From positions 1,170,001 to 1,202,000 of the forward strand of contig NZ_CP015137.1 of the NCBI RefSeq assembly GCF_001644705.1: a DNA stretch of 32,000 nt, in the 5' to 3' direction. This stretch comes from Dickeya solani IPO 2222. Its GTDB lineage: Bacteria; Pseudomonadota; Gammaproteobacteria; Enterobacterales; Enterobacteriaceae. Positions 20,149 to 30,944 of this stretch are shown in pieces; position 1 is the first letter of the stretch; every line of letters starts with the position of its first letter. The position numbers were made by a program, and so were the translations under genes. The notes under the pieces are model-generated. The model was not told the DNA's origin, made no database searches, and saw nothing but the letters and a program-made list of their open reading frames with translations.

Positions 20149-20356
20149 GTTCACTGCCGTGTAGGCAGCTTAGAAAAAGAAAGACAGGTAAAGAAGGTAT
20201 TATCTGGCGTTCACTGCCGTGTAGGCAGCTTAGAAAGGCAAAGCCGGTAAGCTCCGCCGAACCCGCAAGTTCACTGCCGTGTAGGCAGCTTAGAAAAGAT
20301 TGATTTTTGCGTCCAAGCGCTGACGTCGGTTCACTGCCGCACAGGCAGAGATTGAT
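20149..20356 (+). CRISPR. type I-F CRISPR mini-array: 3 full repeats, 3 spacers, and a truncated or aberrant 4th repeat
   Basis: The repeat GTTCACTGCCGTGTAGGCAGCTTAGAAA occurs at 20149, 20209 and 20269. The three 32-nt spacers are at 20177-20208, 20237-20268 and 20297-20328. The 4th unit (20329-20356) is GTTCACTGCCGCACAGGCAGAGATTGAT, which keeps the hairpin but lacks the CTTAGAAA handle. Confidence 0.95.
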
Positions 20357-20357
20357 T

Positions 20358-20665
20358 GGTTTGCTGGCGTTAAAAACTACGCTGAGGTGGGCGACTTCGC
20401 CGGATGCACGGCATGGATGCCGTGCAAGCCCATTCCGCGTTGGGAACGCGTAATGGGCGGTCCGAACAGCGAAGGCACCGCGTAGCGGCGTAGTTTAGCC
20501 TCCAGCCAGTGGTCAAGGAGAGGTGGCACCTGAACCTCTCCTTGTCGTGCGTGCAATGAAATGGCAGAGAAACGCTATTGTTTATCCCGCACGAAACATC
20601 CCACAGTGCTGACACTTCCGCTAATAAAGAACAACCCTGCTGTTTGTCAACAGCCCCTCGCAGCA
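20358..20665. repeat. structured intergenic element, copy 1 (paralog of 30530-30866, inverted)
   Basis: The reverse complement aligns with 30530-30866. The shared blocks are GCACGCACGACAAGGAGAGG, CCTCTCCTTGACCACTGGCTG, GCCTTCGCTGTTCGG and GGCGAAGTCGCC. Intervening helices differ by compensatory changes. No reading frame is shared. Confidence 0.8.
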
Positions 20666-27975: not shown

Positions 27976-29586
27976 ATGCGAATAAAAAAACTGATAAAAA
28001 TAAACCTTTTGCATTTAATCCTGTTTATTTCTCTTGCCAGCATGTTCGTCACGCTTTTGAATAGCTATTTAACCTTTTATAACGTTCAAAAGAAATTACT
28101 TATTGAGCAGGCAGTTAAGGTGAACTCAAGCTATTCATCCAAATTATCCGTAACCGTGGATAATTTTTTCTCTATGTCAGAAGAGCAACTGTCTTACAGC
28201 GCCAAATTGATCGCCAGCCATATCCAGTCCGGCAATTTACGGCAATTACAAGCCGAGCTGCAACGCATTCACCAGTTAAGCCATGCATTCAACTCAATGG
28301 TGGTCGTGACGGAAAATGGCCAGATCATTGCAGCCTCGCCGACGTCACTAAATTTGACCGGTATCACACTGACCTCTAACCGACATCTCACCACACTGAG
28401 AGAGAAGCGATTTTTTATCAGCGCACCCTATACCTCGCTGAGTGGTAATTATATTATTTTTATTTCCTACCCTATCGCAGATGATGCCGGTAATTATCTC
28501 GGTTATATCGGCGGCTCGCTATATCTTAATAGTCGACGTATTCTGAATGAATTCATGAATACGCAATTCAGTAATGACAGTTTTAATACTTATGTGATTG
28601 ATAAAGAAGGCACCATTATTTACCACCGCGACATCGGTCAGATTGGCAAAAAATTCAACGATTCGCATATTCTGAGTTCAATCGCCAATCAGGATAAAGG
28701 CAGCTTTATGATGCCGGACGAACAAGGGATCCTGTCACCGGCGTCGTTTATCCGCACACAAAAGTCAGGCTGGATTATCATCACCCAGCAGTCGTTCCAT
28801 TCTCTTGAGGAAGCACTGAACGACGTGATGCTCAGCGTTCTGAAGCAGGGAACGCCGCTGGGCATCCTCACCCTGCTGGCGCTCAGCATTCTGGCCTATT
28901 ACATCTCCAAGCCGCTGCGCCAGTTGGCTAAATCAGCCAGCAGCATGGATCAGCTTGGCGTCATCAGCAAAATCCGCGCCGTCAAAGCCTGGTATCTGGA
29001 AGCCGAACAGTTAAAGCGGGTCTTGCTGATGGGCACCGTATTGTTGCACAAACGCATTGGCCGCCTCAGTTCGGAAGCCCATACCGACCCGCTTTCCGGC
29101 ATGCTGAACCGACGGGGCATGCAGGAAAGCATGGAAGAGATCCGCAGCGAATATAAGAAAGTCTCGGTGATCGCCATTGATATCGATCATTTCAAAGTGA
29201 TCAATGACTCGTTTGGACACGACGTCGGTGACGAGGTGATCCGCAAACTGAGTCAGCAAATCCGTAAAAACTTCCGCAAGACCGACCTGGTCTGTCGCAT
29301 TGGCGGCGAAGAATTCCTGATTCTGCTGCCTAGCGCGGATATTCACGTCGCCACGGTGATCGCCGAACGGCTACGCAACAACGTCGCGAACACCGTCTAT
29401 ATGCCGGGTTCGCGTCACCATCAGGTCACCATTTCAGTTGGCGTGACGACGTTTAACCCACAGAAGTCGGCGCTGGACATCGCCATCAAAACGGCGGATA
29501 ACGCGCTGTACAAAGCCAAAAATGGCGGCCGTAACCGGGTGGTGGTGGAATACCTCTCTGACGATATTTCTCTGGCACAACATTAA
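27976..29586 (+). CDS. membrane diguanylate cyclase with a periplasmic Cache-like sensor and a GGDEF domain
   Basis: The architecture is TM, a roughly 270-aa periplasmic domain, TM, then a GGDEF domain. The active site is RIGGEEF and an RxxD I-site (RKTD) lies 5 residues upstream. DPLSGMLNRRG and ADNALYKAKNGGRNR are also present. The gene is AT-rich. Confidence 0.9.
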   Translation: MRIKKLIKINLLHLILFISLASMFVTLLNSYLTFYNVQKKLLIEQAVKVNSSYSSKLSVTVDNFFSMSEEQLSYSAKLIASHIQSGNLRQLQAELQRIHQLSHAFNSMVVVTENGQIIAASPTSLNLTGITLTSNRHLTTLREKRFFISAPYTSLSGNYIIFISYPIADDAGNYLGYIGGSLYLNSRRILNEFMNTQFSNDSFNTYVIDKEGTIIYHRDIGQIGKKFNDSHILSSIANQDKGSFMMPDEQGILSPASFIRTQKSGWIIITQQSFHSLEEALNDVMLSVLKQGTPLGILTLLALSILAYYISKPLRQLAKSASSMDQLGVISKIRAVKAWYLEAEQLKRVLLMGTVLLHKRIGRLSSEAHTDPLSGMLNRRGMQESMEEIRSEYKKVSVIAIDIDHFKVINDSFGHDVGDEVIRKLSQQIRKNFRKTDLVCRIGGEEFLILLPSADIHVATVIAERLRNNVANTVYMPGSRHHQVTISVGVTTFNPQKSALDIAIKTADNALYKAKNGGRNRVVVEYLSDDISLAQH

Positions 29587-29815: not shown

Positions 29816-30046
29816 CATCCAGAATGCGATATTGCCCGGCACGTCACGGTGAGTATTGGCGGTTGTACCTTCGAGTATCGGCAATCGCCGGATTTTGTCA
29901 TGGCGATCGAAACGGCGGATAAATTACTGTATCAGTCCAAGCAGGCGGGGAAAGATAGAGCCACCCTGCGCACGCTGGCGCAGGACACTAACGAACCAGA
30001 ATCATTCGTGCCCGCTTTACCGCCGGCGGAACACGAGAAACGGTAA
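29816..30046 (+). pseudogene. 3' remnant of a second GGDEF-domain gene
   Basis: The frame reads ..ARHVTVSIGGCTFEYRQSPDFVMAIETADKLLYQSKQAGKDRA.., which is the last roughly 45 residues of a GGDEF domain plus a tail. An in-frame stop lies immediately upstream at 29813, and no N-terminal domain is present. Confidence 0.7.
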
Positions 30047-30521: not shown

Positions 30522-30547
30522 CCATAAAAAAGCGCGGCAAGCCGCGA
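30522..30547 (-). terminator. Rho-independent terminator (minus strand) between the structured element and yjbQ
   Basis: The minus strand reads GCGCGGCTTGCCGCGC followed by TTTTTTAT. Confidence 0.65.
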
Positions 30548-30866
30548 TAAGGCTGTAAACAAACAGACTTGTTGTTTCGTATAGACGGATTTATGCCAAA
30601 ACGGTAAAAAGTTTCGTGCGTAATAAAATTGATGATTCCTTTGCAGCATCATCGCACGCACGACAAGGAGAGGCTCAAACGCCGCCTCTCCTTGACCACT
30701 GGCTGAGGGCTAAACTGTGCCGCTAGCGCGGTACCTTCGGCATCCGCCTTCGCTGTTCGGGCCGCCCGTGACGTGCTCCCGGCACGGCACGGGCTTTCGC
30801 CGCGTCCATGCGGCTCACCCGGCGAAGTCGCCTGCCTCAGCACAGTTTTTGACGCCAAAACACCCC
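30530..30866. repeat. structured intergenic element, copy 2 (paralog of 20358-20665)
   Basis: See copy 1 for the alignment. The + strand here corresponds to the minus strand of copy 1. The 15-mer GCGCGGCAAGCCGCG occurs at its left end and just beyond its right end (30532-30546 and 30902-30916). Confidence 0.8.
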
Positions 30867-30944
30867 GTCATCTTGCACTGATAAGGTTTGTCAGTAGTCT
30901 GGCGCGGCAAGCCGCGCTTAACAACAACCCCTGGTTTGGAAGGC

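Follow-up and report, generated by a model that had tools for sequence, protein, structure and literature searches.

A MITE-like element family of Dickeya that inserts next to terminators and carries a folded core under selection

ERIC/IRU and REP/BIME sequences, the Correia elements of Neisseria and the pneumococcal BOX elements are small dispersed repeats of transcribed intergenic DNA that folds as RNA. The bcr repeats of the Bacillus cereus group are also dispersed; some of them are MITE-like, and some are reported to have a conserved RNA structure with compensatory changes. To our knowledge, neither terminator targeting nor hairpin duplication has been described for bcr repeats. Among the class C group II introns, Di.ze.I1 of Dickeya targets sites 3' of terminator stem-loops (PMC3522654). 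Members of the IS1202 family generate duplications of 15-17 or 27-28 bp, fixed per subgroup, and have TGT ends; a subgroup targets palindromic XerCD sites in fixed orientation, and copies without duplication are common (bioRxiv 10.1101/2022.12.17.520857).

Here we describe an element of Dickeya that resembles the ERIC, BIME, Correia and BOX repeats in that it has no ORF, is present in multiple copies, lies in intergenic DNA, often between convergent genes, forms hairpins and is probably co-transcribed. It differs from them in being longer, with several helices and a long-range closing helix instead of one palindrome, in carrying optional modules and invariant loop motifs, in a target duplication that is hairpin-sized and not TA or a few bp, in a core that is strongly selected at orthologous loci, and in having no similarity in E. 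coli genomes. With the bcr repeats it shares compensatory changes that suggest an RNA role, but taxon and sequence are unrelated. We read it, with a probability of roughly 0.6, as a terminator-adjacent, ORF-less mobile family of Dickeya that is transcribed as 3'UTR and has a selected core, which is probably RNA.

The stretch of Dickeya solani IPO 2222 that was analysed (32,000 nt, contig NZ_CP015137.1, positions 1,170,001 to 1,202,000; here called the window) contains two copies. A preliminary description had paired 20358-20665 on the plus strand with the reverse complement of 30530-30866. This duplication was borne out: the two stretches were about 80% identical, differed by the reported indels of 13 nt and 1 nt, and were returned by a repeat finder as two inverted arms. 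The boundaries had to be moved, however. Family alignment placed copy 2 at 30551-30901 on the minus strand, with a 5' end 35 nt beyond the earlier range, and copy 1 at about 20349-20655, so that it does not end at 20665. A search with the family HMM found no further or degenerate copies in the window. There was no sign of an inversion of the 10-kb segment between the inverted copies; gene order was the same in species without copy 2. The copies and the sites that they adjoin are as follows.

20349 to 20655, plus strand: copy 1, an ancient copy with about 25 nt missing near its 5' end (HMM positions 24-350 align to 20344-20655)
20329 to 20348, plus strand: degenerate terminal type I-F CRISPR repeat GTTCACTGCCGCACAGGCAG, whose hairpin abuts the 5' end of copy 1 (CRISPR-DR4, 27 bits, below the gathering threshold)
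30551 to 30901, minus strand: copy 2, complete, 351 nt, CAGACTACTGACAAAC ... GTTTGTTTACAGCC (family alignment and HMM, positions 2-350), with the uvrA stop codon on one side and yjbQ on the other, on the same strand as uvrA
30902 to 30921, minus strand: upstream target copy, the uvrA terminator stem-loop TTAAGCGCGGCTTGCCGCGC without T-tract (direct repeat; the empty site has TTTTTT)
30526 to 30550, minus strand: downstream target copy, TTATCGCGGCTTGCCGCGC plus TTTTTT, an intact terminator-like site

One genome per bacterial species was scanned for the conserved 20-mer AGCCAGTGGTCAAGGAGAGG. The scan yielded 24 stretches. Of the 21 genuine copies among them, Dickeya undicola 2B12 contributed 11 and D. 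oryzae ZYY5 contributed 10; three stretches, in unrelated MAGs, were rejected as chance matches. No genomes of the D. solani clade were returned, though these carry the 20-mer. A hairpin-pattern search added 14 copies in one metagenome assembly. The sequence is hence not a two-copy element. It belongs to a dispersed family, of which three Dickeya genomes contain at least 10-14 copies each, and even these counts are lower bounds because some copies have a T-to-A change inside the 20-mer.

Searches elsewhere were negative. Copy 1 gave no blastn match (distant mode) in plasmids, in all complete E. coli genomes or in phages, and the conserved 20-mer was absent from viral contigs. As the preliminary description had anticipated, neither copy belonged to an RNA family in Rfam 15 at the gathering threshold or with E up to 10; only CRISPR-DR4 was found in the window, and the best other matches, with E values of 0.7-9, scored far below gathering. 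A tRNA/tmRNA search of the element found none. The papers searched on Dickeya MITEs, repeats and structured 3'UTR elements yielded no description of the family, which is apparently undescribed. An assignment to REP/BIME was rejected, since those are imperfect palindromes of 20-40 nt in alternating clusters with hundreds of copies, whereas the Dickeya element is a single 350-nt unit with a complex fold and tens of copies.

The element measures about 350 nt, and copies that contain an optional hairpin module reach 420-433 nt (observed range 343-433 nt, basic copy 345-351 nt). A poorly conserved 5' tail of about 55 nt, starting with (C)AGACTGCTGACAAAC, leads into a highly conserved core of about 200 nt. 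The hairpin H9 with its hypervariable tip follows, then a poorly conserved 3' tail and the terminal hairpin GGCTGTT-TGTC-AACAGCC. The ends are CAGAC.../...CAGCC, in longer form CAGACTGCTGACAAAC / GTTTGTCAACAGCC. The module, 73 nt with three hairpins, sits inside the H5 loop in 13 of the 40 aligned copies; two further copies have a 68-nt module of similar design in another placement. At five loci the 73-nt module is present in one and absent from the other of otherwise near-identical orthologs, as would result from either gene conversion or repeated deletion.

The preliminary description had reported no terminal inverted repeats. In the family consensus, however, (C)AGACTGCTGACAAAC agrees with the reverse complement of GGCTGTTGACAAAC at 12 of 14 positions. 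In single copies the agreement is weak (7-13 of 16 positions, with a mean of 9.4 compared with 7.7±1.1 for shuffled sequences), and the 3' arm also forms a hairpin on its own. At the level of the consensus, then, the inverted repeats are real, but weak. They were overlooked earlier because copy 2 had been begun too late and copy 1 is missing about 25 nt close to the 5' end.

The spacer between uvrA and yjbQ exists with and without the element. It is empty in D. oryzae, in D. lacustris, in a further Dickeya genome and in four assemblies with a D. dadantii-type YjbQ; there it is about 83-92 nt long and contains a single terminator, GTTAAGCGCGGC(T/G/A)(T/G)GCCGCGCTTTTTT. It is filled in the window, in eight assemblies with an identical YjbQ and in two with a D. 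dadantii-type YjbQ, including strain 3937. Empty and filled alleles therefore occur among assemblies with the same YjbQ protein, indicating a polymorphic insertion. In the filled alleles, the element lies exactly between the stem of the uvrA terminator and the T-tract, in the order TTAAGCGCGGCTTGCCGCGC, element, TTATCGCGGCTTGCCGCGC, TTTTTT, and the hairpin, present once in the empty allele, is found on both sides. The duplication amounts to about 15-20 bp, depending on whether TTA is counted to the element. For copy 2 in the window, the direct repeat is exact over 15 nt, a score reached in 0 of 200 shuffles, and a terminator scan placed the downstream target copy at 30546-30533 with the tail CTTTTTTATG.

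The family accordingly combines small size, absence of a transposase gene, dispersed polymorphic copies and a target duplication relative to an empty site, as in MITEs. The earlier verdict that the element does not look like a MITE has to be given up, because imperfect inverted repeats and a target-site duplication with its empty site were both found. The preliminary description had also listed, as a refutation, a high-copy mobile repeat with target-site duplications and no transcript; of these features, we found the multiple copies and the duplication, which is proven by the empty site. The length of the duplication is unusual for a MITE, and most copies have none. We conclude that this is a terminator-targeting MITE-like element with a folded core under selection, set apart from MITEs and from ERIC, BIME, Correia and BOX sequences by its fold, by selection and by the hairpin-sized duplication.

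Evidence from other loci varied in strength. The copy L022 is flanked by a 22-bp duplication, again a hairpin, with a score reached in 0 of 200 shuffles, and L048 by a possible 14-bp duplication, which is marginal. When about 32 copies were inspected for decayed duplications by Smith-Waterman alignment, only copy 2 of the window and L022 were significant, and about 29 showed none. For five spacers, D. undicola and D. oryzae each carry a copy. At three of these five (L019/L020, L023/L007 and L010/L006), the two copies have opposite orientation and belong to different subfamilies, and are therefore independent insertions into the same convergent-gene spacers.

About one third of the copies visibly abut a clean stem-loop (L002, L012, L014, L017, L022, L047, L048 and both window copies). 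In a crude comparison of folding energies, the upstream flanks of all copies did not differ from GC-rich coding controls. For this reason we do not claim that the element is always next to a hairpin; we regard hairpin targeting as firm only at loci with a duplication or an empty site.

Since the duplication has the size of the target hairpin, the enzyme might cut an extruded hairpin or cruciform at both feet, in a staggered manner. We know of no described bacterial transposon family with hairpin-feet cutting and a hairpin-sized duplication. The IS1202 family differs from the Dickeya element in this respect: the Dickeya duplication varies in length with the target hairpin (about 15-20 and 22 bp), the ends of the element are CAGAC.../...CAGCC, and no transposase was found. 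A derivation from IS1202 was rejected because TGT ends are missing and the duplications do not follow the fixed classes (5-6, 15-17 and 27-28 bp). Neither a transposase nor a parent autonomous element with the same ends was present in the 66 loci.

The target raises the question of a relation to class C group II introns, which the Dickeya element resembles in insertion just after terminator stem-loops, in sense orientation, and as a structured RNA of a few hundred nucleotides. A non-autonomous retroelement derived from such an intron, or mobilised by it, would explain the type of target and the orientation, and ORF-less class C ribozymes are of about the same length as the element. However, there was no Intron_gpII or D1-D4 match in Rfam with E up to 10. 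A 34-nt domain V with catalytic triad and GNRA loop is missing (H9 is bulged, with a tip of at least 20 nt), and inspection of the alignment revealed no GUGYG...AY ends. Retrohoming makes neither target duplications nor inverted repeats, both of which are present here. We therefore regard an intron origin as very improbable.

Equally, the empty and filled alleles with exact duplications are those of an insertion and not of ordinary sRNA genes, or of a small-protein or toxin-antitoxin locus, that had been duplicated by recombination and is itself immobile. The strong conservation of the core would suit such a locus, as would a short frame, VVKERRRLSLSLSCVR, which in 16 of 20 copies runs to a conserved TGA. 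This frame, however, overlaps H8, varies only with the loop and has no constant start, and longer frames do not survive the indels of 13, 68 and 73 nt. In all six frames of 20 full copies, no convincing conserved ORF was found. A sigma-70-like promoter was likewise missing from both window copies. Taken with the insertion alleles, this makes an immobile gene a most improbable explanation, and we return to the terminator-adjacent mobile family with a folded core.

The structure of the element was built by hand and then scored on 23 and subsequently on 40 copies. The helices and hairpins in the two window copies are located as follows.

20374 to 20496, plus strand: core of copy 1, closed by H1 (20374-20381 with 20489-20496) and containing H3 (20406-20425), H4/H5 (20428-20458) and H7 (20478-20488), from covariation by helix
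20514 to 20593, plus strand: H8 (20514-20544, CAAGGAGAGGT/ACCTCTCCTTG) and H9 (20550-20593, hypervariable tip) of copy 1
20638 to 20655, plus strand: 3'-terminal hairpin of copy 1, TGCTGTT TGTC AACAGCC, identical with the 3' inverted repeat (terminator scan, H10 covariation)
30712 to 30848, minus strand: core of copy 2, closed by H1 (30841-30848 with 30712-30719) and containing H3 (30797-30816), H4/H5 (30764-30794) and H7 (30720-30731)
30615 to 30694, minus strand: H8 (30664-30694) and H9 (30615-30658) of copy 2
30551 to 30568, minus strand: 3'-terminal hairpin of copy 2, GTCTGTT TGTT TACAGCC, identical with the 3' inverted repeat

That the element is structured, as originally proposed from two copies, was upheld with both sets, in which covariation was well over both controls. 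Among the 40 copies, standard pairs occupied 95.3% of cells, compared with 91.3% after shuffling and 31-46% with slid partners. In 20 pairs both partners had changed; shuffled alignments gave 10.0±2.0 such pairs (0 of 500 reached 20) and slid partners at most 5, although the shuffle comparison is indicative only because relatedness among copies is ignored. Compensated pairs were found in each of H1, H3, H4/H5, H7, H8 and the terminal hairpin (H10); the apical pair of H8, for example, is C-G in 23 copies and U-A in 17. We note that gene conversion between copies could spread whole helix variants.

All four helices of the preliminary description reappear in this structure. The first is H4 (GCCCATT/AATGGGC in copy 1, GCCCGTG/CACGGGC in copy 2), the second H5 (CGCGT/ACGCG and CGTGC/GCACG), the third H3 (GCACGGC/GCCGTGC and GCCGC/GCGGC), and the fourth the long-range helix H1 (AAACTACG/CGTAGTTT and AAACTGTG/CACAGTTT). 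The conserved hairpin CAAGGAGAGG..CCTCTCCTTG is also present in both window copies, but its loops are not simply unrelated, as had been stated, because the first loop position covaries with the last. A conserved local hairpin GGCG-ACUU-CGCC, on the other hand, did not survive, since its outer pairs vary without compensation. An RNAalifold alternative with GAAC/GTTT and CCGGCG/CGCCGG was rejected too. It conflicts with H1, which has three compensated pairs, whereas CCGGCG/CGCCGG has none and four uncompensated mismatches. By inspection, no consistent covariation supported an RNA helix between the 5' end and the 3' end.

The core helices are not symmetrical with respect to strand. Read on the given strand, they contain 41 G-U pairs against 6 A-C mismatches. 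H3 has tandem G-A/A-G pairs in 17 copies, replaced by Watson-Crick pairs in 4, and several loops are GNRA or GNA on this strand. This strand bias, the G-A pairs and the GNRA-like loops suggest that RNA rather than single-stranded DNA is the folding molecule.

We then compared the core with its surroundings at the locus of copy 1, which lies beside an amino-acid permease gene. The permease of the window is 100% identical to a protein assigned to D. solani. Among D. solani, D. zeae, D. chrysanthemi and D. lacustris, the core at the permease locus is 95-99% identical. In the same species, the whole permease gene is 82-90% identical, and its four-fold degenerate sites are 55-81% identical. The 3' tail of the element at this locus is 53-73% identical in five of the six species pairs, and 92% identical between D. 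zeae and D. lacustris. Two further orthologous pairs, L001/L011 and L003/L015, have cores with 95-98% identity but flanks with 85-86%. Core identity far over that of nearby neutral sites indicates that the core is selected in place. Conversion from other copies does not explain it, because the orthologs at the permease locus carry helix variants that are absent from other members. The ends decay and the core is kept, which is, to judge by these alignments, unlike a decaying MITE. Such strong conservation in place argues that the element is more than inert mobile DNA.

These data bear on the possibility that the element is an ordinary MITE or palindromic repeat, with hairpins that act as DNA only, as a transposition substrate or as gyrase/IHF sites as in BIMEs, and with no RNA role. 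Inverted repeats, duplications, multiple copies and the absence of an ORF would all be expected of such a repeat, and the position between convergent genes is like that of REP/BIME. Moreover, both strands fold about equally well (z = -4.0 and -4.8), and the 3'-terminal hairpin has no bias for G-U over A-C (6 versus 7). However, selection for mobility cannot hold resident copies at 95-99% while ends and neutral sites diverge. The 41:6 ratio in the core helices and the restriction of tandem G-A pairs and GNRA-like loops to one strand also argue against it, all the more as, in about three quarters of the loci, this strand coincides with the sense strand of the gene upstream. We consider a role as DNA only to be unlikely, and prefer a mobile family with a selected core that probably acts as RNA.

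The locus of copy 1 also gives an indication of age. A small type I-F array was found by Rfam at 20149-20296, and the degenerate repeat constitutes its fourth repeat. Copy 1 begins directly after the hairpin of this repeat, downstream of the array in the reading direction of the repeats (the strand of the CRISPR-DR4 matches), and 21 nt separate its other end from the stop codon of the permease gene, which is convergent. D. zeae, D. chrysanthemi and D. lacustris have the same junction of repeat and element, with the same approximately 25 nt missing, downstream of their permease ortholog; in D. lacustris, cas6f adjoins the array. Copy 1 is therefore older than the divergence of these species. 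It follows that such an element can have a degenerate terminal CRISPR repeat as its neighbour over long evolutionary time.

About three quarters of the copies follow a co-oriented gene, starting 0-61 nt past its stop codon, and often fill the space between convergent genes. When distinct loci were tallied, about 17 were co-oriented with the upstream gene and about 6 were opposite. No promoter was detected in the window copies, so the copies are probably read as 3'UTR. Terminator-like sites are at the expected places in both window copies; at copy 1, the terminal hairpin read on the minus strand is terminator-like for the permease gene (20653-20637, tail GGTTGTTCTT).

These observations suggest the following course of events. 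The element, having no ORF, is presumably moved by an enzyme encoded elsewhere. At uvrA, it inserted between stem and T-tract with duplication of the hairpin. It would then be transcribed by read-through from the upstream gene, as the 3'UTR of that gene, and termination would be restored by the duplicated terminator or, for the convergent gene, by the end hairpin of the element. With termination restored, insertion should do little harm. After insertion, the ends would decay, while selection would keep the core because the RNA has some role.

Our best guess for this role is that of a protein binder, most plausibly of CsrA/RsmA through GGA loops. CsrA/RsmA sites classically present GGA in hairpin loops. 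In soft-rot bacteria RsmA has a central place, and virulence is under the control of the RsmA/rsmB system. All H3 loops (36 of 36) and all H5 loops (26 of 26) contain GGA, and so do the loops of the two GGA-bearing hairpins of the 73-nt module in 13 of 13 and 12 of 13 cases, although the bases around it in the loop vary. With about 30 nt between the H3 loop and the H5 loop, this is the two-site loop GGA pattern expected of a CsrA/RsmA-binding RNA, and the module loop CAGGGAUG equals the CsrA SELEX core CARGGAUG. Overall, GGA is not enriched (about 4 per element), and the CsrA idea rests on loop position.

The predicted sites thus have the arrangement known from CsrB/RsmB and from CsrA sites in mRNAs, namely GGA in short hairpin loops about 30 nt apart. 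CsrB/RsmB sponge RNAs contain about 10-20 GGA loops, whereas the Dickeya element has 2-3, lies within predicted 3'UTRs and is mobile. Binding of CsrA/RsmA by the core is therefore the leading functional guess, though a doubtful one even so. It leaves the rest of the conserved core (H1, H7, H8 and the junctions) unexplained. A stronger proposal, that the element is a mobile RNA cassette (a 3'UTR module binding RsmA/CsrA, or a processed small RNA) and at the same time inserts by a new hairpin-feet chemistry, appears unlikely as a whole. If the cassette reading were true, transposition would rewire post-transcriptional control in a plant pathogen.

Should the broader picture of a terminator-adjacent mobile family with a selected core hold, the payload of a mobile element would be a selected RNA fold and not a gene. 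Entry would occur at the one site that is transcribed without damage, the junction of terminator stem and T-tract. The family would then offer a natural system for the conversion of mobile DNA into regulatory RNA, a new class of 3'UTR elements in important plant pathogens, and possibly a new mode of target recognition with a hairpin-sized duplication. For annotation, the 350-nt blocks account for many "long" convergent intergenic regions.

Finally, we considered whether the element could be a guide RNA (bridge RNA, seekRNA or omega RNA) left by an IS110/IS1111 or IS200/IS605 element after loss of the protein gene. A structured core of about 200 nt with hypervariable segments would fit, and in D. 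dadantii 3937 an IS110-family IS lies inside one copy. However, the hypervariable segments match their own flanks no better than those of other copies, so that a guide-RNA role is not supported. No DEDD or TnpB gene lies beside any copy, there was no Rfam match, and the IS110/IS1111 and IS200/IS605 families do not make long duplications. A guide RNA is for these reasons extremely unlikely, and the IS110-family insertion is better understood from the side of the mobile family, as an event that befell one of its copies. The IS is inserted exactly at the loop/stem junction of H8 in the uvrA-yjbQ element; it interrupts H8, so the element is a target of the IS and not its parent. The supplements of the D. 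dadantii transcriptome map list only the yjbQ start site and the IS-bearing uvrA-yjbQ gap for this region. Like REPs, the Dickeya element is thus a landing site for a site-specific IS, here of the IS110 family, and it accounts for at least one insertion hot spot of this family.

The uvrA-yjbQ spacer, which holds copy 2 of the element in D. solani IPO 2222, was compared between sites lacking and carrying the element in the D. dadantii group (L-numbers denote fetched genomic loci with their own coordinates).

L062-L065, 3417-3501: uvrA-yjbQ site, empty vs filled, compared with L061 and L066

Empty and filled sites were both found among assemblies that have one YjbQ protein in common, and the insertion is therefore polymorphic among close relatives. 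Orthologous copies also differ in optional hairpin modules, which are placed in the alignment of element copies (A3) as follows.

A3 columns 158-233: 73-nt module of three hairpins (L003, L008, L012, L016, L017, L019, L045, L046, L048, L049, L053, L057, L066)
A3 columns 293-360: 68-nt module (L014, L020)

The 68-nt module is similar in design to the 73-nt module and occupies a different position in the element. Modules are gained or lost while the remainder of the copy stays almost identical, as in the uvrA copy of D. solani vs D. dadantii 3937, and likewise in the pairs L017/L056, L024/L049 and L008/L055 and at the permease locus, the site of copy 1.

In D. dadantii 3937, the uvrA-yjbQ copy is itself interrupted.

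L066 2086-3307 (CP002038.1): IS110-family insertion sequence within the element; equivalent point in the window, ~30674/30675

The insertion sequence encodes a DEDD transposase of 329 aa on the minus strand, and lies exactly at the junction between the loop and the 3' stem of hairpin H8. Its 5' non-coding end contains AAGGAGAG, which resembles the target. This insertion sequence seems to use the element family as a specific landing site.

Three further observations concern the permease locus.

Window 20149-20357: orphan type I-F CRISPR array beside copy 1, four repeats, the first three canonical and the last degenerate
L044 3183-3500: permease locus of D. chrysanthemi, 5' half of the element replaced by CRISPR repeats (one strain)
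L042/L041 3175-3620: permease locus of D. dianthicola

The D. dianthicola locus lacks the element and has instead another hairpin together with one repeat remnant; in another strain of this species a Mu-like prophage (Mor, GemA) occupies the locus. In the window, spacer 3 begins with AGATTGATT (20297-20305), and the identical 9 nt directly follow the terminal repeat (20349-20357), which hints that a repeat was duplicated long ago together with the start of the element.

At another site, copies are present in opposite orientations.

L023 4411-4440 and downstream flank, compared with L007: TTATCTGCACGATA, adjoining the D. undicola copy at its 3' end

When reverse-complemented, this stretch equals the 5' end of the D. 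oryzae copy (L007), which occupies the same site in the opposite orientation. The stretch may have been left behind by a previous insertion or by a nested event.

A scan of one genome per bacterial species with a conserved 20-mer of the element also returned L013, L018 and L021, from Verrucomicrobiota, Nitrospirales and Bermanella MAGs. These were rejected as family members, being chance 20-mer matches with similarity over only ~20-40 nt.

Separately, a 42-nt direct repeat (74% identity; window 29478-29519 and 29899-29940) lies around the point where the GGDEF gene ends and the region near yjbQ starts.
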